Source of the DNA: an uncultured bacterium
GTDB taxonomy: Bacteria; Hydrothermota; Hydrothermia; LBFQ01
Direction of reading: 5' to 3'
Length of the DNA stretch: 59,933 nt
Assembly (NCBI GenBank): GCA_964473735.1
Contig: CAYYQD010000004.1
Span: 1 to 59,933, forward strand
Position 1 is the first letter of the stretch, and every line of letters starts with the position of its first letter. A program made the position numbers and the translations under genes. A model generated the notes under the pieces. That model was not told where the DNA came from. It was given only the letters and a program-made list of their open reading frames with translations, and searched no databases. Positions 12,411 through 44,200 of the stretch are shown piece after piece.

Positions 12411-12448
12411 GGTACCACTCTGGGTATAAATCCTGCAGAAGTGGTACC
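12411..12448 (+). repeat. 38-bp palindromic intergenic element, copy A
   Basis: GGTACCACTCTGGGTATAAATCCTGCAGAAGTGGTACC; perfect 9-bp terminal inverted repeats; aligns without gaps to three other copies. Confidence 0.85.
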
Positions 12449-12515
12449 GTGGACGGACGGCCCCGTACCCATTTTCTCCCTACCGGCACGGCAAACTTAC
12501 GGCTACTAAATAACG

Positions 12516-13196
12516 TTGAGCATCATGGGAACGTTATTTAACGTGTGGGTGCTGAGCTTGATTGGTGGGAGGACGGTGGTAAGAGAGTGGGATGTGAAGG
12601 CATCTGTGAGAGATTCCCTAATCACGCGCCTTATAGATCCCGATACGGGAGCAAAATCCACCTTCATCATAGGTAAAACGGGCGGAAAACGTGTGATCGT
12701 TTCCCTCTTCGCTACACCCGTAGAGGAAAAGGGTAAGATGGCTCTTGGGATGGAAGTGAGAATTGGAACGGTGGCTGTGGGCGGGAGTAGATACGGTGCA
12801 TTTATGAACGTTTCCCGGGATACTCTGAACACCCTACTGAAGGCCACGGAAAAGGCCGTAAAAGTTGCGAAACTCAAACAGCTGGACGATGGAACCTTCA
12901 TGTTAGAATTGGCATACGGTGATGAATACGGCTACCAATTTGAAATATGGGTAAGAAGACCTGACGGACTATGGTACGCCCTATATCACTTTTTGAAGGG
13001 AATCTGCGAGGATACACCCCCACCGGCCATTTACTCCACCCTGCTTCCGTCCGGCACTTTGAGGTATGAGATGATCTGCGGTCAAACGGTGAGGATATAC
13101 GGAGCTTTTAACGAAGAAACGCTTGAGCATATCTACCACCTGACGGGATCTCCGGAAGAAAGCCATGAGACGGACGTGGTTGTAATGAAATGGTAA
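12516..13196 (+). CDS. Hypothetical protein, possibly secreted
   Basis: 226-aa ORF with a hydrophobic N-terminal segment; more A/T-ending codons than neighbours; start may be ATG 12525. Confidence 0.6.
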   Translation: MSIMGTLFNVWVLSLIGGRTVVREWDVKASVRDSLITRLIDPDTGAKSTFIIGKTGGKRVIVSLFATPVEEKGKMALGMEVRIGTVAVGGSRYGAFMNVSRDTLNTLLKATEKAVKVAKLKQLDDGTFMLELAYGDEYGYQFEIWVRRPDGLWYALYHFLKGICEDTPPPAIYSTLLPSGTLRYEMICGQTVRIYGAFNEETLEHIYHLTGSPEESHETDVVVMKW

Positions 13197-13274
13197 TGGA
13201 AAAATGGAAAACGGCACGCTCCCATCCCCTACGGTTTATCGGGACGGCTCAAGACCCGGTCACCTTAAAGTGTC

Positions 13275-14552
13275 CTACCTCCTTAGGACCCTCCTTACAC
13301 CCTCCGGTGTTCTGATGAGCCTTATACCTTTCGGGTTTCTCACCTTCCTGCCCGCCGGGTCGTATATGCCGAACCCACCTCTGCACACCCCAGAGGACCT
13401 TTCGGAGACGGATACGGGGACGCACGCCGGTAATACCTCGGCGGATAAGGGGGATACGACCGGATCCACATCGCGGGACAGACTCAGGGGACTGGAGACC
13501 ACACCCATGCTATCCGAAGTGATACTGGTGTTAGATACGCTCAGGGAATAAGGTTGGGTACATGAGAGGAGGCCGTTGTCCGCGCTCACCCTCACCAGAT
13601 AGGCCGTGTCCGTATAGGAGGACGTAATATCACCGTAGGCAAAGAGGTAGTTCCCCCTAACGCCTACATCAAAGAATATGTGGTTGTAGGATGTGTCGGT
13701 GTTGTAGGTCCTGCTCCATATCGGACTCCCGGTGCTATCAAGCTTGGCCACGTAATACGCCGCCACGTAGATACCTGTACTATCCGTCGTCATGGCCCTG
13801 AGGTTTCCGTTTATCATCTTCGCCCAGAGAACCGAACCGCTCCCGTCAAGATGCAGGAGAAAGGAGCTGGAACCCGTGACGGATACCACAAGCCCGTTTC
13901 CGAGGGGGGCTATGGAGTGAGTCTTTACCCCTAAAGTCACACTAACCCCGTAGCGCTTTGCCCATTGAACGTTGCCCGACGTGTCCAGCTTTACCACCAC
14001 CAGATTGGAGAGGGAGTCGGTGGCAACCATGTACAACCCCCCCGTGTGCCATACGATGCCTCCCGGATGGCGTAGACCTCCGAACACTCTGGCCGTCTGC
14101 AGGTTTCCCATGGTGTCCAGAGACACGAGGGCGGGGACGTAGGAGGATAGGGCGGTATCGTAGATACGGTACAGGAGCAGGATTTTCGTACCGATCCAGA
14201 TAACGGATTCGGTGGATACGTAAAGGTACGAGGACGGAAAGTCGTAGGAAGCGCTCCACAGCAGGGAGCCATCCTCCGCGAAGGAGTAAAGGCCCGACCC
14301 CCCGGCCACCACGTACCCTCCCGGATACCTCCCCACACTCTGCGGGTCAAAGCTCAGGCCCTTCTGCCAGACGATATTCCCCGCCGAATCCACCTTCAGA
14401 ACCCCGTAACTCGCAGCGAGCACTGTCCCCCCGTCCGGTGTCGGCCATACCGTCCCAAAAGCCGCCTTCCGGAACACCTTGAGGGACATCGGAGAGGCGT
14501 ACCCCAGTCCCGCAAAGACAACGGGGGAAGCTATCGCTAAATACACCTTCAT
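13275..14552 (-). CDS. Secreted beta-propeller protein with very short T9SS-like C-terminal domain
   Basis: Repeated KLD..G...W blades; C-terminus VSVSE...IYDPAGRKV...VRRVLRR. Confidence 0.7.
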   Translation of the reverse strand: MKVYLAIASPVVFAGLGYASPMSLKVFRKAAFGTVWPTPDGGTVLAASYGVLKVDSAGNIVWQKGLSFDPQSVGRYPGGYVVAGGSGLYSFAEDGSLLWSASYDFPSSYLYVSTESVIWIGTKILLLYRIYDTALSSYVPALVSLDTMGNLQTARVFGGLRHPGGIVWHTGGLYMVATDSLSNLVVVKLDTSGNVQWAKRYGVSVTLGVKTHSIAPLGNGLVVSVTGSSSFLLHLDGSGSVLWAKMINGNLRAMTTDSTGIYVAAYYVAKLDSTGSPIWSRTYNTDTSYNHIFFDVGVRGNYLFAYGDITSSYTDTAYLVRVSADNGLLSCTQPYSLSVSNTSITSDSMGVVSSPLSLSRDVDPVVSPLSAEVLPACVPVSVSERSSGVCRGGFGIYDPAGRKVRNPKGIRLIRTPEGVRRVLRR

Positions 14553-14808
14553 AGTACCGGAATGTTAGACGGGCGATAGGGGGCCATCTGCAGGTAGTTA
14601 AACTACCCGTGTTGAACCATATCTTCCCCTTCGTGATATGAACCCACATAACGGCAGCCGCATACCAGAGATAAGTTCCACGCAGCGTAATTCGGCCATC
14701 CTACCATTGTTGGGCTAACTGATACACCCGAACCCAAAATTCAGGTAGGCCGTTAAAACGTCCGTATAGCTGATGGAAGCATGAACACAGGAGAGGGGTC
14801 TATACGAC

Positions 14809-15447
14809 CTATCGCCCTGCTGCTCTCTTTACCGCCTTCAGGACCTTTTCGGGATCTGCCGCGCTCCCCTTGTAGTAATCTACGATGTTCCCGTTGGGGT
14901 CCACCACGTGTATCCTGTCCGTATGGACTATCTCGTAGCTATAGACCGTATCCACGACCACCTTACCGCCCACCGTGTCCGTCCTGACCTCCACGTCCAT
15001 CGGCCCGACCTCAACCACTATCCCGAGGTCCTTCATGAGGGAGTCTATAACGTCCCGGTCCCCCGTCAGGAAGATCCAGTTGGACGTGTCAACCCTGTAG
15101 AGCGTAGCGTACTCCTTCAGTACCTCCGGCTTATCCCTGCGGGGGTCAAAGGAGATACTTACGAAAAGCACCCTGGACCTGAGTGAGGGGTCCGCGTTTA
15201 CGAGCCTCTGGATCTTCTTCATGTTGCTGGTTATGAAGGGGCAGATGTCCGGGCAGTGGGTGTAGATGTACCCCACGACCAGCACCTTACCCTTGAGGTC
15301 GTCCAGTTTGACCGTATCCCCGTTCTGGTTCACCAAGACGTACCCCTTTCCATAGGGAAAACGGTGGGCGTAGTTAAGGCCCTTACCACATCCGAAAGCC
15401 CCCGCTCCCAACGCCCCCAGTGCCAGAGCTAAGAGTAGGCGACGCAT
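14809..15447 (-). CDS. SCO family copper-chaperone lipoprotein
   Basis: Lipobox AFGC; YTHCPDICP; SFDPRRD; WIFLTG; conserved His in IVHTD. Confidence 0.92.
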   Translation of the reverse strand: MRRLLLALALGALGAGAFGCGKGLNYAHRFPYGKGYVLVNQNGDTVKLDDLKGKVLVVGYIYTHCPDICPFITSNMKKIQRLVNADPSLRSRVLFVSISFDPRRDKPEVLKEYATLYRVDTSNWIFLTGDRDVIDSLMKDLGIVVEVGPMDVEVRTDTVGGKVVVDTVYSYEIVHTDRIHVVDPNGNIVDYYKGSAADPEKVLKAVKRAAGR

Positions 15448-15456
15448 GAAGTTCCA

Positions 15457-15500
15457 ATTCTACGGTTGGTGGCACACGGTACAGCCGGCGGGGGTAGAAT
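15457..15500. promoter_or_regulatory. Divergent leaderless -10 elements (sco / sdhA)
   Basis: TAGAAT on each strand, 9 nt before each ATG. Confidence 0.65.
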
Positions 15501-15509
15501 TACAGGCCT

Positions 15510-17602: not shown

Positions 17603-17676
17603 TATACTTAGTACTGGCTTACATCATATTCTGGGTGGTGGCTCTGGCGTACGGGTACTACCTCCTTAAGGCGTGA
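17599..17676 (+). CDS. Small CcmD-like membrane peptide, 25 aa (not in ORF track)
   Basis: MIYLVLAYIIFWVVALAYGYYLLKA; Y-L-x-x-A-Y-x-x-x-W pattern typical of CcmD-family peptides; ATGA and GTGA overlaps with both neighbours. Confidence 0.7.
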   Translation: MIYLVLAYIIFWVVALAYGYYLLKA

Positions 17677-24750: not shown

Positions 24751-27700
24751 TTAATCTTCGTACAGCTCCTTTCTGACACCGTAGATCTCCTTCAGTACAT
24801 CCCTCCAATCCACCTCCCCCCTCTCTATCCTGTCCATAGCCTCCTCAATCCTCCTCGTAAGGTCCTCGCTCAGGTACTCACCGTATCGGCTCATCAGAAA
24901 CCTGTAGACCCTCTCCCCCAGAGGGGTTGAGTACAGATAACCCGCTTTACTCCTGACCACGTACCCTCTCTTGAGCAGGGTCTCTACTATCTTGGCGTAG
25001 GTGGAGGGTCTCCCCAAACCCCGACGCTTCATCTCCTGAATAAGGGTTCCGTCCGTAAACGGTCTCACTCTGGGCACCTTCCTTATAAAGGGCTTACCTA
25101 TATCCGACTTTCCGCTAAAGAGTACGAACGTGGGCCATATAAGGTCAAACCCCCTCTGGGTCACCTCCAGAACCACCTTTGCCTCTAAGGTCTTTACCGT
25201 TACCTTACCCTCCAGAGCTACGACAGGCCTCATCTGGGATGCCATAAAGCGTTTGAAAATAATGTCGTACAGCTCAAGGGCCCTCTCGGGGATCTCAAGG
25301 AGACCCGCCGCCACCATTGAACGGAGGGTGTTAGCCGTAAGGGGCCGGGTGGGTCGGATGCACTCGTGAGCCCCTCCCTCCCCCCAGCTGCGCGGATAGA
25401 AGTACTCTTCACCGAAGCTCTCGCTTATGTAAGGTTTGGCTACCGAGTACTTGCCGAAGTCGGAGACCCGGGTGGAGTCCGTGCGATGGTAGGTTATCAA
25501 CCCCTTTTCAAAGAGATCCTGAAGGAGGTGCATAGTCTCACCGGCGTCCATCCTCAACCTCACGTTGGCGTCCTCTAAGACCGTGTCCGTCGTGTAAGGG
25601 GGAAGCGGTCGGTATTCGCTCTCACCCGTGGGGATTACCTTCACGTCGCTCGGGGTTATATTCTGTAGGTCGTTAAAAACCTCTCGGGCCCGTCTCCAGT
25701 CGTCGTACCGTCTCTCTAAAGTGACGTTCCCGACCCCTACACCCACCACGTAGGCCTTCCGGCGACTCTCCTTCGTGCGCTCTATTACCCAGCCCAGTAC
25801 GGGAGTTTGAACCCTCCCGGCCGATAGGTGCTCGTTCTTGAACACCTTCCAGAGTATCCGTGAGAAGGTAAAACCTACCCACCTGTCGGCTATGCGTCGG
25901 GTCATCTGGGCCTTGACCCGGTTCAGGTCCGTGTCGCGGGGGTTCTCAAGTGCCTCTTTGAAGGCCCTCGGCGTTATTTCGTGGAACTCGGCCCGCTTTA
26001 TCCGGGCGTTAAAGGGACGGACGTTTAGGAAAAGGTCGTAGGCTATCTTCTCCCCTTCGGCGTCGGGATCCGTAGCCACGAAGACCTCATCCACCTCGTA
26101 GCCTATCTCCCTTATGGCCCGAAGGACGCCCAGTTTGTCCTCTACGTTCTTCTCTCCACAGCGGCGCCGCAGGTAATCGTGGTCGGTGTGTTGCTCCCCG
26201 GTCGTCCTGCATCGTTTGATTGTGTCGTATATTCCTACGTACTTGTGATCCTCCGTCAGGACGCCGAAGAAACCTCCCTCACTTACCAGATCCAGAACGT
26301 GGCCAAGAGAGGCCAGTACAGTTAGGACCCTCTGACCGACAGGTATCTCGTAGGCTACGGCCTCTCCGACGATGCGCACCTGTGGTCTGCCGAAGAAAGA
26401 GGCTATGGTGCGGGCCTTGTTGGGCGACTCAACCACCACCAGGGTGCTCCTAAACAGGTCCCTGCTCTCCGCCCTTATGCGACCCTCCAATATCTCTCTG
26501 GCCCTACGACGATCCTCGTCAATCCTGCGCAGGACCTCACGTAGGTCTATATCTCCGAAGTTCTTGAACTCCACGTCGTGCTGCATGAAGTAGAAACGCA
26601 GGCGCTTCTGCAGGCTGCGGAAGGCCTTACCGTCCCACACCATGAGGACGCTTAAACCCAGAGTCATACCCCCGGCGACCAGTCGGGAGGTCCTCCCCGA
26701 CGCCTGCAGGTAAGTGCTGGCATCCGCCACCACCAGATATAAGTTCCCCTCCTGCTCCACCAAACCTACATCCGGAGACTGCTGAACCTTCTCAAGGAAC
26801 CCGGGATCCTTCAGAATACCTTGAAGCCAATCCCTGATCCTCTCCACCTCCGCCTTTACGCGTGCGTACCTGTCCAGATCCTCCTCCCGCATAGTCAGAT
26901 ACCGACGTAGGTAGGACATGGCCCGGCGGGCCTGCAAACGCTCCCCTTCGTCCTCCAAGAGGTCGGCTACGGCGAGCACCGTCGCGTACAGGGAGGAGGG
27001 ACGCAGACCCAACTCCAGCGGTAGCAAAAACTTGGGTACGTCCAGAAAGATGGCATATCGCACGATGTGGGGTAAGTCCAGACCGCGAACGAGGGGGTTG
27101 TTTATACGGGCCAGACCTACGGCCACATCAAAATCCTCCCCCTTCATCTTTTCGTAGATCTGCTGCGGTCTTCCGTCCAGATAGGATACGACCTTCAGGC
27201 CCCCTCTCCTGAGGTCCTCCGTCACCTTCTGAACCTCATCCCTTCCGGCGTACGATGGGAGGAATAGGAGCCCTCCTTTACCCAACCTCCTTATCAGCTC
27301 CACCATCTCCTCTCGGGCCTTCTCGTAGGATTCAACCTCGTAGTAGGTATCCAGCACGTTTCTCAGACTGGTGGTGGCCTTCTGGACGTCAAAGCCCAGA
27401 AGCTCCCTGAAGAGTCTGACACGGTTGCCCTTCGGCCTCAAAGTAGCCGACGATACCACCAGAACCGTTCCCCTCGGCCTCTCCCTGATACGTTTAAGGA
27501 TTTCGTTTTCCCTTTCGCTCCTCTCCCTCTTGAGGGCCATCTCTATCTCCCGGTCTTTAAAGCCCATAAGCCTGAACAACCTATCAACGTTCTTCCCTCT
27601 CTTGAGGAAGGAGTCTATGTCGTCCAAGAATATGAAGGCCAGATCGCCCGAGAACCCTAAGAGGCTCTCGTGATTCCTGTGGAAGAACATGTTGGTCCCG

Positions 27701-28215
27701 ATCAACACGTCCCATTCACCCGAGAGAAAAGCCTCCTTGACTCTCTTCTTGCTCTCGTAGAGCAGGATGCGCCTTTGAGTTTTGAGGACGCCTTCCATAG
27801 ACGTAAGGCGGTCGGCCGCCTGAGAGGCGAGGATGCGGGTGGGGAAGAGCAGAAGGGCTTTCCCTTTAAGGTAAAGGGCGGTTATTAGGCCGAAGGTGGT
27901 CTTCCCTACGCCCGTCGGGGCCACTATGGCAAAGGAGCGTCCCAATAGGACCCTCTTCATCCACGTTCTCTGCAGGGACCACGGGTCTCCCACGACTCTT
28001 CTGAAGGCCTCCTCGTAGCCCCTGATCTCCTTTTCCACCCGACAGTAAGCATGGAGGCCCTTCGTCTCCCTTAAATCCGAACATATCCTTAGAAGCCCGG
28101 GGGTTTTAGGGGGCTCTGGAAGGCATCTGTGGCAGGGTAGCCCCAGCGAAAGGCGGTCGTCGGATACTGGACCACCGCAGTTAGGACATCCCCGTTTGAT
28201 AAGCATCAGGGCCAT
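24751..28215 (-). CDS. rgy: Reverse gyrase
   Basis: CPNCGG Zn finger, APTGVGKT, DDID, YLQASGRTSRL, VESPNKARTI, DPDAEGE, SAGRVQ, ITYHRTDS, GLGRPSTY. Confidence 0.97.
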   Translation of the reverse strand: MALMLIKRGCPNCGGPVSDDRLSLGLPCHRCLPEPPKTPGLLRICSDLRETKGLHAYCRVEKEIRGYEEAFRRVVGDPWSLQRTWMKRVLLGRSFAIVAPTGVGKTTFGLITALYLKGKALLLFPTRILASQAADRLTSMEGVLKTQRRILLYESKKRVKEAFLSGEWDVLIGTNMFFHRNHESLLGFSGDLAFIFLDDIDSFLKRGKNVDRLFRLMGFKDREIEMALKRERSERENEILKRIRERPRGTVLVVSSATLRPKGNRVRLFRELLGFDVQKATTSLRNVLDTYYEVESYEKAREEMVELIRRLGKGGLLFLPSYAGRDEVQKVTEDLRRGGLKVVSYLDGRPQQIYEKMKGEDFDVAVGLARINNPLVRGLDLPHIVRYAIFLDVPKFLLPLELGLRPSSLYATVLAVADLLEDEGERLQARRAMSYLRRYLTMREEDLDRYARVKAEVERIRDWLQGILKDPGFLEKVQQSPDVGLVEQEGNLYLVVADASTYLQASGRTSRLVAGGMTLGLSVLMVWDGKAFRSLQKRLRFYFMQHDVEFKNFGDIDLREVLRRIDEDRRRAREILEGRIRAESRDLFRSTLVVVESPNKARTIASFFGRPQVRIVGEAVAYEIPVGQRVLTVLASLGHVLDLVSEGGFFGVLTEDHKYVGIYDTIKRCRTTGEQHTDHDYLRRRCGEKNVEDKLGVLRAIREIGYEVDEVFVATDPDAEGEKIAYDLFLNVRPFNARIKRAEFHEITPRAFKEALENPRDTDLNRVKAQMTRRIADRWVGFTFSRILWKVFKNEHLSAGRVQTPVLGWVIERTKESRRKAYVVGVGVGNVTLERRYDDWRRAREVFNDLQNITPSDVKVIPTGESEYRPLPPYTTDTVLEDANVRLRMDAGETMHLLQDLFEKGLITYHRTDSTRVSDFGKYSVAKPYISESFGEEYFYPRSWGEGGAHECIRPTRPLTANTLRSMVAAGLLEIPERALELYDIIFKRFMASQMRPVVALEGKVTVKTLEAKVVLEVTQRGFDLIWPTFVLFSGKSDIGKPFIRKVPRVRPFTDGTLIQEMKRRGLGRPSTYAKIVETLLKRGYVVRSKAGYLYSTPLGERVYRFLMSRYGEYLSEDLTRRIEEAMDRIERGEVDWRDVLKEIYGVRKELYED

Positions 28216-28222
28216 GGAGAGG

Positions 28223-28305
28223 ATTTTAGAGTAGAGCCTTAAGGACGGACGCGCGTCCTAACGATGCACCTTCTTTACAGGTACCACGCCCTTCTACGTT
28301 AGAAT
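28223..28305. promoter_or_regulatory. Divergent leaderless -10 elements (rgy / mtnP)
   Basis: TAAAAT (minus, 28228-28223) and TAGAAT (plus, 28300-28305), each 7 nt before ATG. Confidence 0.65.
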
Positions 28306-28312
28306 CCCCCCT

Positions 28313-29173
28313 ATGCGTATAGGAATCATAGGCGGTTCAGGTTTCTACAACATAGAGGGGTACGACATCCTTGACCGGAGGCACATACTGAAGACCCCGT
28401 GGGGAGAGCCCTCCGCCGACTACGTCATCGCTGGCAAGGACGGGTTTGAGTTCGTATTCTTAGCCCGCCATGGCAAGAACCACGATATACCTCCCCATCG
28501 CATACCCTATAGGGCCAATCTGTGGGGTTTCAGGCTCCTTGAGGTGGATAGGATATTCGCCATCTCCGCCGTGGGTGCCGTAAATCCGGACCTTGAAGTG
28601 GGGGACATAGTCATACCGGATCAGCTCCTTGACCTGACCCGAACCCGCGGCCAGATCTCCTACTACGAGGGGAGATTCACGCCGGATGGGGAGTTTGAAC
28701 ATCCGGGCAGGGGCAAGGACAGGGTGTATTACGCCCTAAAGGAAAAGAAGGTGGTTCATATAGACGTAACGGAGCCCTTTGATCCGCAGGGTAGGGAGGT
28801 GGCCTTTCAGGTCCTATCCGAAGCCGGTCTGAAGGTGATACCGAAGGGTACCTACGCTGCCATGGAGGGACCGAGGCTGGAGACGGCGGCGGAGATAAGG
28901 GCTCTCCGTATCTTAGGGGCGGATCTGGTGGGTATGACGGCCGTACCCGAGGCCTTCCTCGCGAGGGAGCTGGAGATGTGCTACACCCTAATAACGGTCG
29001 TCACCAACATGGCGGCGGGCATATCCCCCACCAAGCTAACCACAGAGGAGGTACTTCAGGTCTCCTCAAGTAGAAAGCAGAGGATAATTGACCTGATATA
29101 CGAAATAGCGAAGAGGCTACCCGAAGACCTACCACCGGAGTGCGGAGAAGCCCTAAAGGGCACGATGATGTAA
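28313..29173 (+). CDS. mtnP: S-methyl-5'-thioadenosine phosphorylase family protein
   Basis: GIIGGSG, RHG..H..PPH, EGPRLET.AE, VGMT, VTN. Confidence 0.88.
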   Translation: MRIGIIGGSGFYNIEGYDILDRRHILKTPWGEPSADYVIAGKDGFEFVFLARHGKNHDIPPHRIPYRANLWGFRLLEVDRIFAISAVGAVNPDLEVGDIVIPDQLLDLTRTRGQISYYEGRFTPDGEFEHPGRGKDRVYYALKEKKVVHIDVTEPFDPQGREVAFQVLSEAGLKVIPKGTYAAMEGPRLETAAEIRALRILGADLVGMTAVPEAFLARELEMCYTLITVVTNMAAGISPTKLTTEEVLQVSSSRKQRIIDLIYEIAKRLPEDLPPECGEALKGTMM

Positions 29174-29216
29174 CCTACGGCGGGGTTGCACGACGGACCG
29201 ATAGGGTATCCCCGGG

Positions 29217-29254
29217 GGTATCACTTTGGGTACAAAACCTGAGGAAGTGGTACT
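29217..29254 (+). repeat. 38-bp palindromic intergenic element, copy C
   Basis: GGTATCACTTTGGGTACAAAACCTGAGGAAGTGGTACT; lies between convergent mtnP and sod. Confidence 0.8.
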
Positions 29255-29287
29255 GTAGGTAATACCTGTACTAAAGATGCGGAACAT

Positions 29288-29314
29288 AAAAAAACCCCGC
29301 CAGAGGGCGGGGTT
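29288..29314 (-). terminator. Intrinsic terminator of sod
   Basis: Stem AACCCCGCC-agag-GGCGGGGTT; the A-run on + gives a U-tract on the minus strand, just downstream of the sod stop. Confidence 0.88.
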
Positions 29315-29335
29315 CAACGCAGGCGTACCCTGAAC

Positions 29336-29965
29336 TTAGCCTATGGCCTCTTTGTAAAGCCTCTCCACCTCCTCCCAGTTCACCACGTTCCACCAGTTCT
29401 TGACGTAGTCCCCGCGACGGTTCTGGTACCTTAGGTAGTACGCGTGCTCCCAAACGTCCAGACCCAGTACGGGCGTACCGGTGAAGCCGGAGATGTCCTC
29501 TGGCATCAAGGGGTTATCCTGATTGGCCGTGGAGCCTATGAGGAGCTTCCCGTCCTTCACCACGAGCCATGCCCATCCGGAGCCGAACCTCCCCAAAGCG
29601 GCCTTACTGAACTCCTCCTTAAAGGCCTCAAATCTCCCGAAGGTATCCTCTATGGCCTTCAGGAGCTCCCCCTTGGGCTTGCCACCACCGTTGGGGGACA
29701 TGACCCTCCAGAAGAGGGAGTGGTTGTAGTGGCCTCCACCGTTGTTCCTTACGGCCGTCCTTATGTCCTCAGGCACCTCGTGGAGCTTGCTCAACAGGTC
29801 TTCAAGGCTCCACTCCTGAAGCTCGGGGTGCTTCTCCACAGCGGCGTTCAGCTTCTTCACGTAGCCACCGTGGTGCTTGTTGTAGTGTATCCACATGGTG
29901 GCCACGTCCACGTAAGGCTCAAGGGCGTCGTACCCGTAAGGTAGATCCGGCAGCTTGAACTTCAT
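29336..29965 (-). CDS. sodA: Mn/Fe superoxide dismutase
   Basis: [34 protein letters not shown]. Confidence 0.97.
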
Positions 29966-29971
29966 GCTCTT

Positions 29972-30009
29972 ACCTCCTTTTTATCCTGACCGATGAGGTA
30001 AGGATTATA
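29972..30009 (-). promoter_or_regulatory. Leadered sod promoter: -10 TATAAT and strong Shine-Dalgarno AGGAGGT
   Basis: TATAAT at 30009-30004; AGGAGGT at 29978-29972, 6 nt before ATG. Confidence 0.7.
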
Positions 30010-30033
30010 CGGGTGAAATCGGAGACGTTGGGG

Positions 30034-30402
30034 CTACCCCCCGTAGGTGTGGGGGTCGTACGTTGTCTTAAAACGCTCCACCTCGTCCGATAGGGTCTTG
30101 AGTACGTACGTTAAGACGGCAGCATCATCTACGTACCCGATAAAGGGAAGGAAGTCCATTATAGCATCTGTCGGAACTACGAAGTACAGGAGGGCGGCCG
30201 CGAGGGTGAATAGGGTTTTGCGGCTCATCCTGTACCTCCCTTTCACGCTCTCTTTCACCATCGCCGCTATGAGGAGGACGTCCTCTACCACACCTCTGGG
30301 CCCTCCACTCCTAACCTTCCCCTCCACGGCATCCATTATCCTCATCACATCCCCCATTCCCTTTACCCGCGAGAGAGCCATCCTTAGAAGTACCCTACCC
30401 AC
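30034..30402 (-). CDS. YkvA/DUF1232 family protein
   Basis: ALLYFVVPTDAIMDFLPFIGYVDD. Confidence 0.9.
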   Translation of the reverse strand: MGRVLLRMALSRVKGMGDVMRIMDAVEGKVRSGGPRGVVEDVLLIAAMVKESVKGRYRMSRKTLFTLAAALLYFVVPTDAIMDFLPFIGYVDDAAVLTYVLKTLSDEVERFKTTYDPHTYGG

Positions 30403-30469
30403 TTTTTTATTTTAAGGCCGTCTTCCCGGCTATGACGTCCCGTCTCCCTCGGTCGTATAATAGTCGCCT

Positions 30470-32584
30470 ATGAGAAGGACTACGGCTCTGGCGGTTTTAA
30501 TGTTGGCCGCTGGATTTACTTCGTGTGCCAAGCGCGTCCCGGAGGACGCTTACATTTCGGATCCCAACCTACAGGCGGGGCTCTTCGCGGAGCTCAGAGG
30601 GGACTACACTACGGCGGAGAAGGTGTTTAAGTCCTCTCCCGACAGGTACTGGGGAGGTCTCCTCCTCTCCGACCTCTACTTCTACCGCAAGAGGGACTAC
30701 AAGCGGGCCCTTTCGGAGGTGGAGAAGGTTGAGAAGACGGTGAATAAGAAGTCTCCCAAGGCCGAGAACGTACTCTACCGCAAAGGACTGATCCTCCAGA
30801 GTATGGGGAGGTACCGTGAGGCCGGAAAGGTATTTGAGTACGTCGCCGTTAACTTCCCCGATGGCCATTACTTTGAGGACGCCACCGAGGCCGTGGAGGA
30901 GATGTTCCGCAGGAACTTCCCGGAGACCCTCGCCGTATACGACGGTGGGTACGTCAGCTCCATGATGCTGGAGTGGGCTCTGGAGAAGATCCCTCCCTTC
31001 CAGAGGAGCCGGTTTGACAACCCCGAGGGACGTAAGAACCTCGTGGAGAGGATAGCCATAGAGCAGGTGGCCCTCAAGGAGGCCGAGGCCATGCACCTTG
31101 ACACCACGAAGGAGGTACGGGAGAAGCTGGAGGTGGAGAGAAAGTCCGCCCTCCGTCAGGCCTACTACCAGTACGGCATAAAGGCCAAGGCTAAGGCCAC
31201 GGAAAAGGAGCTGAAGGCTTACTACAACGCCCACAAAAGTGACTACAGGGAGCCCGCCCGCATAGACATCGTCAGGGTAGGGGTTAAGGACAGCGCCAAG
31301 GCCTACGAGATACTGAAGGCCGTGAAGGGTGGAGCGAAGATAGACTCCATAGCGAGGGACACCACCATAAACGTGTTTAAGCGCGAGGCCCAGAGGGGTG
31401 GGAAGCGGGTAATATACGACACCTACGAGGCGTACAAGGGACTCTTTAAAGAGGCCTTCAAGCACGACACGGGCGACGTCTTCGTATATCACGAGGACAC
31501 GCTCTGGATGGTCGTCAAACTACTTGACAAGAAGCCCGAAAGGTACAAGAGCTACGACGAGGTCAAGAACATAGTTAAGAACGCAGTTGAGGGGAAGAAG
31601 GAGAGGGAGCTATACCAGAAGGACAGGGAGAGGTTGAGGGAGTTCTACGGTGTAAAGATCTTCATAAAGGCCGAAAAGGACACCAGCAAAAAGGCGGAGA
31701 GTATGGAGCCCGAAGGTGAGGAGGGCCCGGAGGTCGGAGCCTTTGACCGGCTGGAGAAGGAGCTACCCGATACCGTGGCCGTCATTGAGAGGCTGGGGAA
31801 GGTCATAACGGACAGGGATCTAATAAACCGCATCATGAAGCTCCCAAGGAGGTACCAGAACCTCTACACCACGCCGTCCGGAGCCCGGGAGTTCCTTGAA
31901 AACGCAGTACTGCCCGAGATACTTGAGGTGGCGGACGCCGAGCTCCACAGGTACTACCTCCATTACCCGATATACTCCCGTATGAGGCAGGCTTACAAGG
32001 ACGCCATGCTCATGGCCCTCTACAAGAAGCTGGTGAAGGATAAGGTGAAGGTGAGCGACGAAGAGGTCCAGAAGTACTACGAGGACCACAAAGACAACTA
32101 CAGGGAGGAGGGAAAGGTAAAGGTCCAGAGGATCGTCGTGAAGGACCGTAAGACGGCCTACAGGCTCCTATCCCAGATCCGCCGGAAGAAGGTCAATCCC
32201 GACTCCATCGCCCGGAAGATGACGGACATAAGGTCCGAGAGGGCGATGGTGGGGTACGTGTTCGTGAGCGCCTCCTCCGAGCCCGACTTCTACAGGAGGG
32301 CCATGAGGTCCCCTATGAAGAGGTGGAGGGTCACCCGACTCAAGGACGGACGCTGGGCCGTGTACAGGGTCCTGATGAAGAAGAAGCCGAGGGTTAAACC
32401 TCTGGACGAGGTGGCGGATATGATCCATCAGGAGCTCTCCTACAACAAGGAGAAGGAGCTGTACGAGAAGGCCCTGGACTACCTTAAGAAGAAGTACCAC
32501 ATTAAGGTCTTTGAGGACAGGATAGAGGCCTCCTTCAATAAAAAAGATGAGAGGAAGGAGGGTGGAAATAAAGAGAAGAAGTGA
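30470..32584 (+). CDS. Lipoprotein foldase: TPR domain plus two PrsA/PpiC-like modules
   Basis: Lipobox FTSC; TPR-like LYRKG..Y.EA..F; duplicated (E.E...YY..HK..YRE ... K...EVK) modules. Confidence 0.75.
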   Translation: MRRTTALAVLMLAAGFTSCAKRVPEDAYISDPNLQAGLFAELRGDYTTAEKVFKSSPDRYWGGLLLSDLYFYRKRDYKRALSEVEKVEKTVNKKSPKAENVLYRKGLILQSMGRYREAGKVFEYVAVNFPDGHYFEDATEAVEEMFRRNFPETLAVYDGGYVSSMMLEWALEKIPPFQRSRFDNPEGRKNLVERIAIEQVALKEAEAMHLDTTKEVREKLEVERKSALRQAYYQYGIKAKAKATEKELKAYYNAHKSDYREPARIDIVRVGVKDSAKAYEILKAVKGGAKIDSIARDTTINVFKREAQRGGKRVIYDTYEAYKGLFKEAFKHDTGDVFVYHEDTLWMVVKLLDKKPERYKSYDEVKNIVKNAVEGKKERELYQKDRERLREFYGVKIFIKAEKDTSKKAESMEPEGEEGPEVGAFDRLEKELPDTVAVIERLGKVITDRDLINRIMKLPRRYQNLYTTPSGAREFLENAVLPEILEVADAELHRYYLHYPIYSRMRQAYKDAMLMALYKKLVKDKVKVSDEEVQKYYEDHKDNYREEGKVKVQRIVVKDRKTAYRLLSQIRRKKVNPDSIARKMTDIRSERAMVGYVFVSASSEPDFYRRAMRSPMKRWRVTRLKDGRWAVYRVLMKKKPRVKPLDEVADMIHQELSYNKEKELYEKALDYLKKKYHIKVFEDRIEASFNKKDERKEGGNKEKK

Positions 32585-38565: not shown

Positions 38566-39645
38566 GTGTTAGCCGACCTGCTCCAGAGCCTGCGGCACCT
38601 GAACATCGTCTTCAACCTCTTCTCCTATCTGACCTTCCGCTCCGCCATCGCCTTCGTTCTCTCCTTCGTACTTACCTACTTCCTCCTGCGATGGTACATA
38701 AGGAGGTTCGGCTCCAGCCTGTACGAGCGTATATCCGAAGACGTACCCGAGAGACACAAGAAGAAAGAGGGCACACCCTCCTCCGGAGGGATCATCTTCG
38801 TATCCGTGGCCCTGGTGGTCACCCTGCTTATGGCCTCTCCGGTTCCCGCCGTACTGACGGCCGTCTTCACCACGGCGGTTATGGGGGGGATGGGACTGAT
38901 AGACGACCTCTCAAAACTTCGGAGGGTGGAGAAAAAGGGAGGGTTGTCCAAGAGGGTCAAACTCGTCTTCCAGATCGGCTTAGGATTCGTGTTCGCGTTC
39001 GTATCCCTGCACATCTTCGGAGATAAGGCCTTCACTACGCAGATACTCTTCCTGAAGAACTACTTCATATACATGGGGTGGTTATACGTCCTGTTCGTCG
39101 CCCTGGTGCTCTCCGGCACGGCCAACGGGGTGAATCTGACGGACGGTCTGGACGGTCTGGCCACGGGGGTCGTGCTCTTCCCCTTAGTCATATTCGGCAT
39201 CATAGCGTACGTTGAGGGGAACGTCAAGTTTGCCACGTACCTGAACGTCCTCTACATCAGAGATGCCGGGCAGCTGGTCGTCTTCGCGTCCTCGTTGGCC
39301 GGGGCCCTCGTAGCCTTCCTCTGGTACAACACCCATCCGGCCGAGGTATTTATGGGAGATACAGGATCCCAGGCCATCGGAGGTGCCCTCGCCTCCCTCG
39401 CCATACTGACGAAACAGGAGCTCTTACTGGCCGTAGCCGGCGGGGTTCTGGTCTTAGAGACCCTCTCCGTAGCCCTCCAGATATGGTACTTCCGTATGAC
39501 GGGTGGTAAGAGACTCTTCCTTATGGCCCCCCTACACCATCACTTTGAGAAGTTAGGCTGGCACGAGAACAAGATAGTCGTTCGTTTCTGGATAATGTCC
39601 CTCCTGTTCTCCCTCCTCGCCTTAGCGACCCTTAAGGTCAGGTAA
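38566..39645 (+). CDS. mraY: Phospho-N-acetylmuramoyl-pentapeptide transferase
   Basis: KEGTPSSGG, NLTDGLDGLA, VFMGDTGS, MAPLHHHFE. Confidence 0.96.
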   Translation: MLADLLQSLRHLNIVFNLFSYLTFRSAIAFVLSFVLTYFLLRWYIRRFGSSLYERISEDVPERHKKKEGTPSSGGIIFVSVALVVTLLMASPVPAVLTAVFTTAVMGGMGLIDDLSKLRRVEKKGGLSKRVKLVFQIGLGFVFAFVSLHIFGDKAFTTQILFLKNYFIYMGWLYVLFVALVLSGTANGVNLTDGLDGLATGVVLFPLVIFGIIAYVEGNVKFATYLNVLYIRDAGQLVVFASSLAGALVAFLWYNTHPAEVFMGDTGSQAIGGALASLAILTKQELLLAVAGGVLVLETLSVALQIWYFRMTGGKRLFLMAPLHHHFEKLGWHENKIVVRFWIMSLLFSLLALATLKVR

Positions 39646-39706
39646 TGCATCGCCTGTCTGAAGTTCAACGGTATAATCTTCGGCCTGTGCTAAAGGAGGG
39701 GGACAG

Positions 39707-40822
39707 TTGAAGGTAAAGGGGCCCATTCTGATAACGGGGGGGTTGGGGTTCTTGGGTAGCTGGACGGTGGAGGAGGCCGTGCGGCGCGGGTACAAGGTCG
39801 TGGTGGTGGATGCTCTGACCTACGCCGCCAACCCGGATAACCTCTCCAGCCTTAAGGTACGGTTCGTGGTGCCGTTCAGGAGACACTTCTGGACTCTCGT
39901 CCGTTTTGGCTCTGGTTCTCCCGAACCCCTTGGGGATCCCCCCGACGTTTCCAGCTTAGGGGTGGCAGGGGATCCCGAGAAGGAGATACTGGACTTCCTA
40001 TCCTCGGATCTGGACGTTCTCGTTATACTCGCCTCGGTTGAGGATTACCCGCTCATGAAGGCGGTCATGCCCCACGTTGAGGGAGTAATACACTTAGCCG
40101 CGGAAACCCACGTGGATAGGTCCATTGAGGACGCATGGGACTTCGTAAGGGCCGAAATCCTTGGGTTCTACAGTACCGTGGATGCCTTCCGCAGGGCAAA
40201 GGGAAGGGACGGTAGGTTCCTCCTAATATCCACCGACGAGGTCTTAGGGGAGGTGATGGAGGGTGCGGTGGGGGAGGACGCCCCGCTGATGCCACGGAAT
40301 CCGTACGCTGCGGCGAAATCCTCGCAGGAACACTTCGCCCAGAGCTACATAAACACCTACGGTATCCCCATAACTATCCTCAGGCCCACCAACGCCTACG
40401 GCCCACGCCAACACTCCGAGAAGTTCGTACCGAAGATCATCCTGAACGCCCTGCGGGGTGCTCCCATTCCGGTCTACGGGGACGGAAGGCAGAGGCGCGT
40501 ATGGATTTACGCCGAAGACGTTGCCATCGGTATAATGGACGTGTTTGAGAGGGGGAACTTTCCCGACATTTACCACATGGCCAGCCCCGACGAGATGGAA
40601 AACCTCGCCCTCGTCAAAAAAATCCTGAGGATGATTGGAAAGTCAGAGGACCTCATAACCTTCGTAAAGGACAGGCCGGGCCACGATCGGAGGTACTCCC
40701 TGAGGTGGGATAAGATAAAGGCTCTGGGGTGGTCGCCCAGGACGTCTCTGGACGCCGGGCTCAGGGCCACGATAAAGTACTACGTAGAACGTTATGCTAA
40801 CAGACCTTCTGTTCGCGGATAA
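39707..40822 (+). CDS. rfbB: dTDP-glucose 4,6-dehydratase
   Basis: TGGLGFLG, DALTYA, AAETHVDRS, STDEV, YAAAK, DRPGHDRRY; SD AGGAGG before TTG. Confidence 0.9.
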   Translation: MKVKGPILITGGLGFLGSWTVEEAVRRGYKVVVVDALTYAANPDNLSSLKVRFVVPFRRHFWTLVRFGSGSPEPLGDPPDVSSLGVAGDPEKEILDFLSSDLDVLVILASVEDYPLMKAVMPHVEGVIHLAAETHVDRSIEDAWDFVRAEILGFYSTVDAFRRAKGRDGRFLLISTDEVLGEVMEGAVGEDAPLMPRNPYAAAKSSQEHFAQSYINTYGIPITILRPTNAYGPRQHSEKFVPKIILNALRGAPIPVYGDGRQRRVWIYAEDVAIGIMDVFERGNFPDIYHMASPDEMENLALVKKILRMIGKSEDLITFVKDRPGHDRRYSLRWDKIKALGWSPRTSLDAGLRATIKYYVERYANRPSVRG

Positions 40823-41879
40823 CCCCTGGTGGCTGGGGAAGGAGGTGCCGCTACCGGAGAGGCTCCTACCCTTCTCTGATCTACCGGGTACGTACAGGTT
40901 CTGGGTACCGCCGGGAGGAATATCCGTGAGGGACCTGAAGGGGATGGCTTACGGTTGGACGAAGAGGTGGGGTCAGTACTCCGCCTTTCTTATAGACCTC
41001 TCGCGGGTTGAGATCCCCATCTCGGAGTTTGAGAACGCCCTTGACTTCTATCTGAGCCGCCTCCACGTGGCCAGCGAGAGGCACCTCCTCATAATAAACG
41101 CCGCCCAGTGGGTGGAGGAAACCGTCCTGCGGGAGTTCCTTGACGAGAGCTACACGACCCTGCTCATATACGGGGTGAGACCCAGGGGAAAACACAGGGT
41201 AATACTCCCGTACTACCCCGACTCCCCATCCACGGGTGAGGTGCGTGAGGCCTTCTGGAGTGGGGACGTGGCCAGGGCGAAGGAGATCCTATCCGGATAC
41301 GGACGTACGTTTATGCGAAAGGTAAAATCCTACTTCTGGAAGTACGTGGTGGGATTCCCACCCGACGAGCGCATGTACGAGAGCATCCTTAAGATGTACG
41401 CCATCGTCCACGAGTACTACGACGTCAGGGAGAAGGAGATGTTCCGTAAGGTCCTGTCCTATCTGGTCGGAAACGCCGGAGGGAGGATAAAGTTCCGTGA
41501 GGCTGCGGAGTCCATAGGAGTCAGGTTTGAGACCTTCAGGGCCTTTATGGATCAGCTGATAAGCGTAGGATTGATATACGAGTTTTACCACGTCAACAGG
41601 GAGAGTCCGAGGGCACCGAGGATCGTGCTCTTAGCCAACGGACACTTCCATCACCTGCTTAAGCACACCGACCAGAGGGACATCCTCATGCTGGACGAAG
41701 GATCGGACGACGTCCTCCCTTTCCTCCTACCCTACGTCATCGGTAAGGCTATGGAGAGAGGGGTCTCCGTAATGTTTGAGGACGAGGGCGGAAAGCACCT
41801 GTACTTTGATACCGAAGAGCCCTTCACCGTGCGTCTGGGTGAAGAAGTATCTCCGATTGAAATAGTGGGAATGCTATGA
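40794..41879 (+). CDS. Hypothetical protein resembling a degenerate AAA+/DUF4143-type ATP-binding protein
   Basis: N-terminal NPWW, GFP motif and winged-helix-like segment as in that family, but no Walker A/B. Confidence 0.5.
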   Translation: MLTDLLFADNPWWLGKEVPLPERLLPFSDLPGTYRFWVPPGGISVRDLKGMAYGWTKRWGQYSAFLIDLSRVEIPISEFENALDFYLSRLHVASERHLLIINAAQWVEETVLREFLDESYTTLLIYGVRPRGKHRVILPYYPDSPSTGEVREAFWSGDVARAKEILSGYGRTFMRKVKSYFWKYVVGFPPDERMYESILKMYAIVHEYYDVREKEMFRKVLSYLVGNAGGRIKFREAAESIGVRFETFRAFMDQLISVGLIYEFYHVNRESPRAPRIVLLANGHFHHLLKHTDQRDILMLDEGSDDVLPFLLPYVIGKAMERGVSVMFEDEGGKHLYFDTEEPFTVRLGEEVSPIEIVGML

Positions 41880-42850
41880 GGTACACGGACGCCGGCGTCT
41901 CTCTGGGTAAAGCCAGTGCCTTGGTAGGATGGTTAAAGGGGCGTCTAAAGGGGGAGGTCGGCTCCTTCTCCGCCCGCGTGAAGCTGGGGGGAGATACCCT
42001 TCTCCTATCAACCGACGGTATAGGAACTAAAATCCTCCTCGCCCTTAAGTACTACCGTTTAACCGGGGATGGAGGGGTTCTCCTCGCTCTGGGACAGGAC
42101 CTGGTGGCCATGGTATCCAACGACATCTTAGCCGATGGAGGGCGTACGCTCTACTTCCTTGACTACTTCGCCACCGGTAATCTGGAACCGGAAGTGGCCC
42201 GGATCGTCCTGGAGGGGATTATCAGGGCCACACGTAGGGTGGGGGCCAGACTCGTGGGAGGAGAGACGGCGGAGCTACCGGGTATGCTGCCCAAAGGTAC
42301 GTTTGACGTGGCGGGGTTCGGCGTGGGCGTTCCCATGCTCAAGAGGAGGAGGAGGGTGAAGCCGGGCGACGTCCTGATCGCCTTCCCATCCTCGGGGTTC
42401 CACTCCAACGGCTACTCCCTGATAAGGCGTATAGTTGAAGAGAGGGGACTGGACCTCCTTAAGACCTACAGGGAAACGGGGAGCAGGAAACCTCTCGGGG
42501 CTTTGCTCCTTAGACCCACGCGGCTTTACTATCGGGTAGGCAGGGAGATGTTCCTGAAGTACGGAGCGAAGGCCGGAGCCCACATAACGGGAGGGGGAAT
42601 ACCCGAGAACCTTCCGAGGGCCCTCTCCGGCTACGACGCCAGCGTCCGCTGGGATGCGGTGCCCACACCACGGTTTATGAGGTTCCTCCTGCAGGTTGGT
42701 GAGGTACCGGAGGACGAGGCCCGCAGGGTCTTCAACATGGGCGTGGGTTTCGTTTTCGTGGTGCCAGAGCGGAGGGTAGGGGCGGTGCTCAGGAGGTTTA
42801 AGGAGGCCTTCGTCTTGGGGGAGGTCGCAGGGAGAACTCCGTCCGTTTAA
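41876..42850 (+). CDS. purM: Phosphoribosylformylglycinamidine cyclo-ligase
   Basis: DGIGTK, GQDLVAMVSND, FLDY, GGETAE, SSGFHSNGYS, HITGGG, FNMG. Confidence 0.95.
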   Translation: MRYTDAGVSLGKASALVGWLKGRLKGEVGSFSARVKLGGDTLLLSTDGIGTKILLALKYYRLTGDGGVLLALGQDLVAMVSNDILADGGRTLYFLDYFATGNLEPEVARIVLEGIIRATRRVGARLVGGETAELPGMLPKGTFDVAGFGVGVPMLKRRRRVKPGDVLIAFPSSGFHSNGYSLIRRIVEERGLDLLKTYRETGSRKPLGALLLRPTRLYYRVGREMFLKYGAKAGAHITGGGIPENLPRALSGYDASVRWDAVPTPRFMRFLLQVGEVPEDEARRVFNMGVGFVFVVPERRVGAVLRRFKEAFVLGEVAGRTPSV

Positions 42851-42908
42851 TTGGTGTTGTACTGAACGCAGCATCTAAACCCGTCCCGTACATCGGGCGT
42901 ATTGAGAC

Positions 42909-42946
42909 GGTATCACTTATGCTGATTTTATACCCAGAGTGGTACC
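42909..42946 (-). repeat. 38-bp palindromic intergenic element, copy B
   Basis: Reverse complement GGTACCACTCTGGGTATAAAATCAGCATAAGTGATACC; first 20 nt identical to copy A. Confidence 0.85.
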
Positions 42947-43029
42947 TCCACCTTCGGACGGCGTGAATCTTGAAGAGTTGGCAGTATCCGGTAAAACACT
43001 ATAACCCCCCTATTGGTCGCCTGTACCGA

Positions 43030-44016
43030 TTATCTTACGATCACGCGGTAAATCCTCCCCTTAGAGCGTACGAAGAACACACCGGAGTATCGGAACGTGT
43101 AAGATCCGCTGAAAGTGGCGACCGTACGGCCGGAGGCATCATAAACTACCCCCTCCCGGGCATATACGGTCCTGCCCACGATACTCAGAGATTCGGTTCC
43201 GTACGGTGCCTCGGATACCCCGGTACCTACGGGACGCACGAACAGGATGGCCGTACCGCTGTCTGGGACGTGGCCCGAGGGGATGGCGTCATAAACGTAC
43301 TGGAGGTACCAGTCGGGATTAACCCCGGTGGCGGCGGTTGAGTCCTGTATTCCTATCGTAGCGTTATCGTAGTAAATGCGTGAGTTGTACTGGAGCTTTA
43401 TGTTGCCGTTGTCGTAGAAAACGACCTCAAAGTTCATGGGGATGGAGTACATACCCCTTACCGGTACGTTGTAGTACTGTACCACGGCACACGCACCGCT
43501 ATAACCGTCGGGACAGGAGGGGAAGGACTGGAAGTACATTCCACCCGTACTGTAGGCCGACGGGTCAAGGTCGTCCCACATCACGAACACCGCACCTATG
43601 CTATCTCTGGGGTAAGGGAGGGAGTCGTTTGTAAAGGAGAGTATGTTCCCGGTACCCTCTAACAGTACCCCTCCGTTGGAGCATACGGAGACCGAGTCTA
43701 TACTCTGGTCGTAAAAGGGAAAGGGAAATCCGAGGTAAAACAACGTAGAGCTGTCAGCCCCCGAGCACCAGTCGTCATCGGCATCCATGAAAACTCCGGT
43801 AGAAGTTATATCAACGTAGTTGAAAGTGACCCCGGTATCTCCGTCCTGTGTAGATAGGTAGATATATCCGTAGCCGTCTGGACCTCCGCTCGGGAGTTTA
43901 AGGTCCGTGCTACCATCCGTACGTACGGACGCGACAGGTTCAACCCTGGAGCCTCCCTTTACCGACGGGATGGCATCCGAACCCTCTAAACCTATAAATG
44001 CTAAAAGTACCATCAT
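43030..44016 (-). CDS. Secreted protein with GGPDxYGY/nidogen-like beta domain and T9SS-type CTD
   Basis: GGPDGYGY, LGFPFPFY, WDDLDP, FEVVFYDNGNIKLQY, ATIGIQ; CTD TGVSE...VYDASGR...SGVFFVR...RVIVR. Confidence 0.75.
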   Translation of the reverse strand: MMVLLAFIGLEGSDAIPSVKGGSRVEPVASVRTDGSTDLKLPSGGPDGYGYIYLSTQDGDTGVTFNYVDITSTGVFMDADDDWCSGADSSTLFYLGFPFPFYDQSIDSVSVCSNGGVLLEGTGNILSFTNDSLPYPRDSIGAVFVMWDDLDPSAYSTGGMYFQSFPSCPDGYSGACAVVQYYNVPVRGMYSIPMNFEVVFYDNGNIKLQYNSRIYYDNATIGIQDSTAATGVNPDWYLQYVYDAIPSGHVPDSGTAILFVRPVGTGVSEAPYGTESLSIVGRTVYAREGVVYDASGRTVATFSGSYTFRYSGVFFVRSKGRIYRVIVR

Positions 44017-44162
44017 GAGCGCCCCATTATAGGGCTGAAATGGGAAAATTGTGAAATTATTTTAAATCACGATCGCCACTTTTTAAAATCGTGTATCGTC
44101 GTTATCTGCTCCACGGCCGTAATGGAATCGTGCCGATGGTGGGTACGGGATTGGGCGGGAGA

Positions 44163-44200
44163 GGTGCCGCTTCCGTCAGCTTTACGTCCGAAATGGTACC
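44163..44200 (-). repeat. 38-bp palindromic intergenic element, copy D (diverged)
   Basis: Reverse complement GGTACCATTTCGGACGTAAAGCTGACGGAAGCGGCACC; like copy A, followed 13 nt later by CCCGTACCCA. Confidence 0.7.

Follow-up and report, generated by a model that had tools for sequence, protein, structure and literature searches.

Bacteria often carry short dispersed palindromes, whose spread and use are understood mainly for the REP-RAYT (repetitive extragenic palindrome and REP-associated tyrosine transposase) systems of Proteobacteria. Miniature inverted-repeat transposable elements (MITEs), such as Correia/NEMIS of Neisseria, are about 100-160 bp long and have terminal inverted repeats and a target-site duplication. 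The ends of IS200/IS605 insertion sequences (ISs) and the PATEs are oriented imperfect palindromes, which insert in a specific orientation and leave no target duplication. Integron attC sites, including the Vibrio VCR, are imperfect palindromes lying in one direction per cluster, between unrelated segments of one array. We analyzed a 38-bp palindromic element (the 38-mer) found in intergenic gaps of a 59,933-nt stretch of DNA (the window) from an uncultured hydrothermal bacterium of the FCB group. The whole stretch makes up contig C4 of a fragmented draft genome of 1.76 Mb (104 contigs, 56.6% G+C, 95% complete). A first-pass annotation of the window had reported four copies, A, B, C and D, and had proposed that they are a REP-like or MITE relic, a site-specific recombination site or a site for a chromosome-organising protein. 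All four strings are present on the strands and at the positions given in Table 1, and a weight matrix scan of the contig gave no other copies.

On the basis of the copies found, where they occur, how they are oriented and how they are conserved, we interpret the element as a REP-like dispersed palindrome private to this species. It would have been scattered by a mobile activity that is coupled to orientation and makes no target duplications; the family would be old, and its core would be kept as a protein site in duplex DNA. We give this reading about even chances.

We used a position weight matrix (PWM) obtained from the four window copies to scan the whole draft genome. With a cut-off score of at least 21 there were 114 sites, 107 of which scored at least 30, and the score range 20-30 was nearly empty (7 windows). 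A second scan with a degenerate 38-nt pattern, allowing up to 3 mismatches, gave 101 matches in the genome, while the same pattern reversed, used as a control, gave 0. The family lies well beyond what chance would give. Its copies are dispersed across at least 55 contigs, and 23 of them lie no more than 300 nt from a contig end, compared with 3.5% expected. This crowding at contig ends shows that the family interrupts the assembly, and in reality there are probably more than 114 copies.

The consensus of the family is GGTAYCACTYTGGGTAYAAAAYCnnnnnAAGTGRTACC (Y, C or T; R, A or G). Its edges are sharp: in-register conservation stops at GGn on the left and at G on the right, so that the unit measures 38 bp, or 42 bp when the G-rich edges are counted. 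About 25 positions are conserved in more than 95% of the copies and about 12 are degenerate, mostly C/T or A/G; positions 24-28 are nearly free and form a hypervariable 5-nt patch. The 38-mer is the sole part common to all copies, and no second conserved box was found in register downstream of it across the family. We observed that 103 of the 107 high-scoring copies were distinct, with the largest identical class having 2 members. The consensus itself does not occur among the copies, which most often differ from it at 5-8 positions. The flanks of near-identical copies are unrelated. Target-site duplications, which the first-pass annotation had named among the signs to look for, were not enriched at any length of 2-8 bp and offset of -6 to +6 outside the element.

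The placement of the copies was assessed on a crude gene map made of longest-ORF calls, in which ORFs of at least 150 aa span 86% of the genome. Only 5 of the 114 copies lie inside such ORFs, all within about 110 nt of the ORF end, and these are probably over-extended ORF calls. Copies were found in every class of gap: 23 divergent, 17 convergent, 13 tandem co-oriented and 14 tandem opposed, with 23 at contig edges and 24 inside short doubtful ORFs. The gene on the 3' side was co-oriented with the element in 51 cases and opposed in 49. With all gap classes populated and no preferred orientation, a general promoter or terminator role is unlikely.

Neighbouring copies follow a strict rule. All 24 pairs less than 2 kb apart are parallel (24/24, two-sided binomial p = 1.2e-7); at 2-5 kb there were 6 pairs with the same and 2 with the opposite orientation, and beyond 5 kb the orientation was random. 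The DNA before and after neighbouring copies was unrelated (21 pairs, highest z 3.2). As the spacers are unrelated, the clusters are not tandem duplications, and an origin by tandem duplication of a larger unit was ruled out. Neither GC skew nor the local coding strand was linked to orientation, so that the relation to the replichore raised by the first-pass annotation was not observed. At 17 orientation switch points the copies faced each other in 13 cases and pointed apart in 4 (p = 0.049).

Several other explanations of the placement were rejected. Targeting to tRNA genes was discarded, as 7 of the 47 tRNAs have a copy within 600 nt, compared with 10.4% of protein genes, which is no enrichment; the window itself holds no tRNA. 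The copies do not form a CRISPR array: they are dispersed, and spacings within clusters are irregular (80-386 nt). GGTACC does not behave as a restriction-modification target, since the site is not avoided (observed/expected 0.96). Genome-wide, other palindromes are avoided as if they were such targets, namely GTATAC (observed/expected 0.21) and GTGCAC (0.39).

We compared the draft genome with 40 relatives, including 6 congeners (genomes of the same genus) and 11 members of its taxonomic family. None of the 40 gave a match to the element, even at up to 3 mismatches. A 21-nt core pattern was used for the scan of public genomes and metagenomes. It gave 4 matches in public species genomes, each single and in unrelated genomes, where about 4 are expected by chance. 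In public metagenomes there were 45 loci, of which 39 were 97-100% identical to the assembly and represent the same population. Comparison of the metagenome loci with the assembly revealed only 4-10 nt indels near copies, and no copy gained or lost. Strains were compared by means of contigs from 4 sequencing runs of 3 studies; of the words sampled from a 6-kb part of the window, these contained 64-93%. No RNA run was among those listed. The contigs bridge copies C, B and D with no gap. A joint of 42946 to 44459, considered as B-D recombination, was discarded, as it has only 20 letters on the shorter side and does not fit. The absence of the element from the congeners, the gap-free strain copies and the lack of a master sequence suggest that the family expanded after its host had separated from the sampled congeners and well before the present strain diversity arose, with the core retained since.

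A 2865-nt metagenome contig (loci L065/L066), which is not represented in the assembly, has two 38-mers in parallel and a tail like that of the long form described below. Its ORFs of 159, 80 and 249 aa belong to no clear family, and the contig may come from an extrachromosomal element or from a genomic region that escaped binning.

We also compared gene order. The junctions at C, B, D and six other copies were not syntenic in any of the 6 congeners. Nearly every gene near the tested copies maps elsewhere in each congener, at junctions with and without a copy, and the copies sit at borders of synteny blocks, as does every other intergenic gap. Gene order was scrambled almost gene by gene against the six congeners (70-89% nucleotide identity) in window positions 26813-31465 and 40376-47539, and likewise at C6:10000-29999 (locus L024) and C8:5000-24999 (locus L025). 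Congeners G002 and G005 agree with each other at some of the junctions that are scrambled here.

The arms of the palindrome were analyzed across the family. The first-pass annotation had described 9-bp terminal arms in each window copy; these are present, and they are perfectly complementary only in A (B 8/9, C 7/9, D 6/9). A perfect Watson-Crick stem was found in 22 of the 114 copies, or 56 when G-T pairs were allowed, while 58 copies had at least one true mismatch. Positions 5 and 34 vary independently (TG 43, CG 27, CA 21, TA 21). Mutual information between distant positions did not rise above the shuffle maximum; values beyond it were confined to neighbours within 21-28, and the pair 14/21 was at the maximum. 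The changes in the arms are mirror-symmetric on the two DNA strands, each arm being GGTAYCACT when read from outside. Such symmetry would be expected if a dimeric protein recognises the duplex, and not if a single strand folds. The predicted DNA fold is weak (-4.8 kcal/mol, z -1.8). Because the two arms vary independently of each other, with no compensating changes, the most likely reader of the element is a dimeric protein that recognises double-stranded DNA; an RNA or DNA hairpin is probably not the form that is read.

The 38-mer is also embedded in several longer repeat families. The largest of them, the long form, consists of a head of about 55 nt ending in CCCCTCTTTACGATGGA, the 38-mer and a tail of about 112-160 nt. 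Parts of it are present in the window, the head motif at copy D and parts of the tail at copy B. A profile of the tail only gave 17 sites at E <=1e-3, of which 15 lie directly after a scoring 38-mer and 1 after a copy with a 1-nt indel. In a pairwise comparison of 12 long-form copies, mean identity was 0.82 across the 38-mer and 0.92 at the conserved positions of the latter, while the head reached 0.48 and the tail 0.44-0.54. The tail is private to this genome: a sequence model gave 19 sites here, compared with one marginal site (E 0.0075) in the six congeners. No consensus RNA structure was predicted for it. The suggestion of the first-pass annotation that the unit may be longer than 38 bp holds for subfamilies only. 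The CGTAYC extension was found within +39..+108 in 13 of the 114 copies, a minority, compared with 6.6% of random intergenic windows.

The element has several features in common with the REP, BIME and REPIN sequences of Enterobacteria and Pseudomonas. Like them it is a short (about 20-40 nt) imperfect palindrome, extragenic, lineage-specific and of high copy number, often clustered, arranged in a mosaic with other short modules and without target duplications. By definition, a REPIN is two REPs in inverted orientation (PMC8049555, PMC3337134; definitions of REP/REPIN-RAYT also from PMC3116915), TnpA-REP requires a GTAG tetranucleotide 5' of the hairpin foot (PMC3479197), and REPINs are described by a quasispecies picture with an abundant master sequence (PMC8049555). 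Here, in contrast, none of the adjacent pairs less than 2 kb apart is inverted (0/24), and no abundant master sequence exists. There is no 5' GTAG: the flank is GGn, the element starts with GGTAY, and position 5 is C or T (G in 1/114). Instead of a small loop there is a conserved asymmetric core of 20 nt. No Y1/RAYT gene, which in REP-RAYT systems is usually flanked by the repeats, was found in this assembly or in the 11 genomes of the taxonomic family; Y1_Tnp (PF01797) was present in 6 of the 40 relatives. The proposal of a REP-like or MITE relic comes closest for a high-copy, intergenic, palindromic and species-private element. With no Y1 gene found and no inverted doublets, 5' GTAG or master sequence, however, the family falls outside the REP/REPIN-RAYT system as defined, and without target duplications it does not conform to the MITEs. 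The element itself was not found in print by a string search with four 16-mers and in the REP literature.

The other described systems differ in other respects. The element has terminal inverted repeats (the 9-bp arms) in common with MITEs of the Correia/NEMIS type and is likewise non-coding, intergenic and of high copy number, and an IS with a DDE transposase occurs in the population. It differs in measuring only 38 bp and in having no target-site duplication and no IS with matching ends shown. With IS200/IS605 derivatives (PATEs) it shares the oriented imperfect palindrome, the lack of target duplication and orientation-specific insertion; there is, however, no Y1 TnpA or TnpB, the stem mismatches are scattered and are not conserved features, and the spacers between parallel copies are not homologous between loci. 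Like attC and VCR sites, the copies are imperfect palindromes, parallel within a cluster and lying between unrelated segments. Unlike them, they are dispersed and not gathered in one array, no integron integrase was found, and housekeeping genes lie between the sites.

According to the preferred reading of a REP-like palindrome, the unit would have been spread over intergenic DNA by a mobile activity which leaves no target duplication, at a time when the lineage had already separated from the sampled congeners. New copies would have been placed next to old ones and parallel with them, and the unit would have spread both alone and within several longer composite repeats. The family would now consist of old copies and would no longer be a replicating population. 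About 25 positions would be held nearly invariant, while about 12, mostly Y or R, would drift freely. We propose that a putative dimeric, sequence-specific protein may bind two inverted GGTAYCAC half-sites about 30 bp apart, which would span the A-rich asymmetric core (GGGTAYAAAA). The chromosome-organising protein site considered by the first-pass annotation fits the lack of covariation in the stem and the strong conservation relative to co-duplicated flanks.

A number of observations weigh against this interpretation. Mobility is read from the distribution of the copies, and no direct sign of it was found. A Pfam search of the assembly gave no match to Y1_Tnp, Resolvase, DDE_Tnp_1, TnpB zinc ribbon, DEDD_Tnp_IS110, rve or Transposase_mut, although a Y1_Tnp gene flanked by repeats can be missed by binning. 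The nearby RAYT/TnpA(Y1), serine recombinase or transposase gene that the first-pass annotation had considered was accordingly not found, and the assembly holds only two Xer-like recombinases. We saw no presence/absence polymorphism among the metagenome loci or in the strain contigs at C, B and D. With gene order interrupted between nearly all adjacent genes, the congeners offered no empty site for comparison. The case for selection in place comes from one subfamily of 12-17 copies, and its alternative is a 38-mer inserted later into an older repeat. The lower polymorphism of the elements (5/1465, compared with 68/5900 in flanking intergenic DNA; Fisher p = 0.003) agrees with such selection but comes from a biased sample, because the metagenome contigs were chosen by exact match to positions 1-21. 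Tolerance of G-U pairs in the inner stem of an RNA would likewise be compatible with the degeneracy at positions 22 and 23, where Y faces G, and at 25, where R faces T.

Four other explanations were weighed. The 38-mer might be a site-specific recombination site of the integron or att type, in which integration of a circle leaves two parallel sites around unrelated DNA. This would account for the parallel close neighbours with unrelated spacers, the lack of target duplications, the inverted arms around a directional core with its hypervariable patch, and the several repeat families that have the 38-mer at one edge; in addition, the identity of one metagenome contig to its sister contig ends at position 23/24 of a copy. 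Against it, between copy pairs 0.5-5.5 kb apart there are 26 ORFs, and the 23 with Pfam matches are core genes, among them ClpB, Lon, TyrRS, TatC, Asd, PurL and OGG, with no mobile or accessory gene; no transposase, recombinase or HUH nuclease was found among the 26. Both tyrosine recombinases of the genome are XerC/XerD-like and score 123-127 bits with the integron-integrase model, far below its cut-off of 265, and no serine recombinase was found. The crossover regions of tyrosine recombinases are far shorter than the 20 bp that separate the arms. No excised or empty form was seen at C, B and D in 4 runs. Of this proposal of the first-pass annotation the strict co-orientation of neighbours remains in favour, while the core genes between pairs, the two Xer-like recombinases and the lack of gain or loss at C, B and D speak against it, and we consider it unlikely. 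A second possibility is that the 38-mer is a miniature derivative (a MITE or a solo end) of an IS of the IS5 family, moved by its DDE transposase. Metagenome contig L044, which bridges assembly contigs C82 and C85, carries an IS5-family element at 190-1229 with a transposase of 279 aa (DDE_Tnp_1, E 2.6e-23). The repeated segment starts at a 38-mer of which the first 23 nt are intact, identity to sister contig L047 stopping at position 23/24, and its far end is an inverted TCTGGGTA, an 8-nt match to the core of the element. Since the binned assembly lacks this IS, there may be more copies of it than were counted. Nevertheless, transposition by DDE enzymes makes target-site duplications, and none flank the 38-mers. 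Only a single copy of this IS was seen, with its true ends undefined, and congener G003, in which part of this IS lies at the end of a contig, has a different sequence in place of the 8-mer. Described MITEs are longer than a 38-bp unit with 9-bp arms, and the junction in L044 could be an assembly join through the common 23 nt. The link between this IS and the 38-mer is therefore unproven, and descent from it seems improbable.

The remaining two explanations concern functions in expression. If the element acted as RNA, its hairpin (a 9-bp outer and a 5-bp inner stem) would protect or end transcripts, like the REP hairpins of E. coli. The predicted RNA fold (mean -12.3 kcal/mol, mean z -3.2 against shuffles), the many copies just past gene ends, and Y22, Y23 and R25 facing G14, G13 and T11, as G-U/U-G tolerance would allow, are consistent with such a role. 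We give it a similarly low probability, as the arms show no compensatory change, the outer stem has a true mismatch in about half of the family (58/114), and the arm changes are symmetric on two DNA strands and not on one RNA strand. Nor is there a strand preference with respect to genes (13 tandem same, 14 opposite, 23 in divergent gaps), and Rfam gave no match in the window (gathering scores) or at nine long-form loci (E up to 1). Finally, the element could be a host promoter/operator module in which the TATAAA of the core serves as a -10 box flanked by two operator half-sites. A sequence similar to a -35 box, TTTACG, is found 18-19 nt upstream in the long form, and a two-repeat CRISPR array lies 62 nt downstream of one copy and has the orientation of that copy. 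A role of this kind is improbable in view of the 17 copies between convergent genes, the balance of co-oriented and opposed downstream genes (51 and 49), the lack of a conserved -35 box across the family, and the lack of matches to the motif in 40 relatives having homologues of the neighbouring genes.

The coordinates of the copies and of the motifs around them are collected in Table 1.

Table 1. Copies of the 38-mer in the window and associated motifs
Feature	Coordinates	Strand	Remarks
Copy A	12411..12448	+	perfect 9-bp arms; top PWM score 55.0; 0 mismatches to degenerate pattern
CCCGTACCCA box 13 nt past copy A	12462..12471	+	minority subfamily extension
CGGCACG after CCCGTACCCA box of copy A	12484-12490	+	
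Copy C	29217..29254	+	between convergent genes; bridged by contigs of 4 runs, 0 gaps
GGTGTTGTACT box	42853..42863	+	inverted relative to copy B, 83 nt downstream of B start
Copy B	42909..42946	-	between convergent genes; bridged by contigs of runs X1 and X4, 0 gaps
CCCGTACCCA 13 nt past copy D (44149-44140) and CGGCACG (44135-44129)	44129..44149	-	both common to copy A
Copy D	44163..44200	-	PWM score 42.1, most diverged of the four; bridged by contigs of runs X1 and X3, 0 gaps
CCCCTCTTTACGATG 'head' motif of long-form subfamily	44221..44235	-	20-nt insertion separates motif from 38-mer of copy D

The surroundings of the four copies were in agreement with the first-pass annotation, which had placed two of them between convergent genes (these are C and B, while D is divergent) and had noted that CCCGTACCCA and a later CGGCACG follow both A and D. 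Copy A lies in a 200-nt gap upstream of an ORF (12516-13196, +). Copy C is located between a gene of the purine/uridine phosphorylase family (28313-29173, +) and a Fe/Mn superoxide dismutase (SOD) gene (29336-29965, -). The latter has its own hairpin and T-run at about 29296-29325, and copy C is therefore not the SOD terminator. Copy B lies between an AIR-synthase-related gene (41876-42850, +) and a gene of a putative secreted protein (43030-44016, -), and copy D in the gap between the latter and a PolX/PHP polymerase gene (44303-46039, +). Copies B and D are parallel and 1254 nt apart. The GGTGTTGTACT box near B is one mosaic module of the family; about 8 other copies have it 22-30 nt upstream, oriented like the element.

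The putative secreted protein encoded at 43030-44016 (328 aa) had no Pfam or NCBIfam match. It belongs to a multi-copy family with at least 4 more copies in the genome and several in each congener. Visual inspection suggests a signal-like segment at the N-terminus and, at the C-terminus, a tail that appears to resemble a type IX secretion sorting domain.

Some other repeats of the genome were observed beside the 38-mer. A two-repeat mini CRISPR array (Rfam CRISPR-DR2, 47.6 and 43.8 bits) is located at C8:14232-14328 (L025 9233-9329, -), downstream of copy C8:14396, and is the sole genomic site of the CRISPR-DR2 repeat. Another repeat, of about 29 nt and similar to a CRISPR repeat, accounts for the commonest 21-25-mers in the genome (12-14 copies). 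A G+C-rich palindromic 16-mer occurs 18 times and may be a family of terminator hairpins.

In summary, the family combines four features that the REP-RAYT model does not predict: no RAYT or other known transposase found, parallel neighbours, no master sequence, and a core conserved while the flanks decay. It is possible, although we regard it as doubtful, that the 38-mers are a domesticated cis-element, that is, more than 100 private sites for a putative sequence-specific protein, kept under purifying selection since the species arose and installed by an extinct or unassembled mobile element, whose way of inserting would be coupled to orientation, make no duplications and use none of the known transposase families. 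If the conservation does not reflect selection in place, the family would be one more lineage-specific REP-like filler. If it does, these sites would be a clear example from nature of a selfish repeat that became a motif of its host, and the 38-mer would offer a defined bait for finding the protein that reads it.

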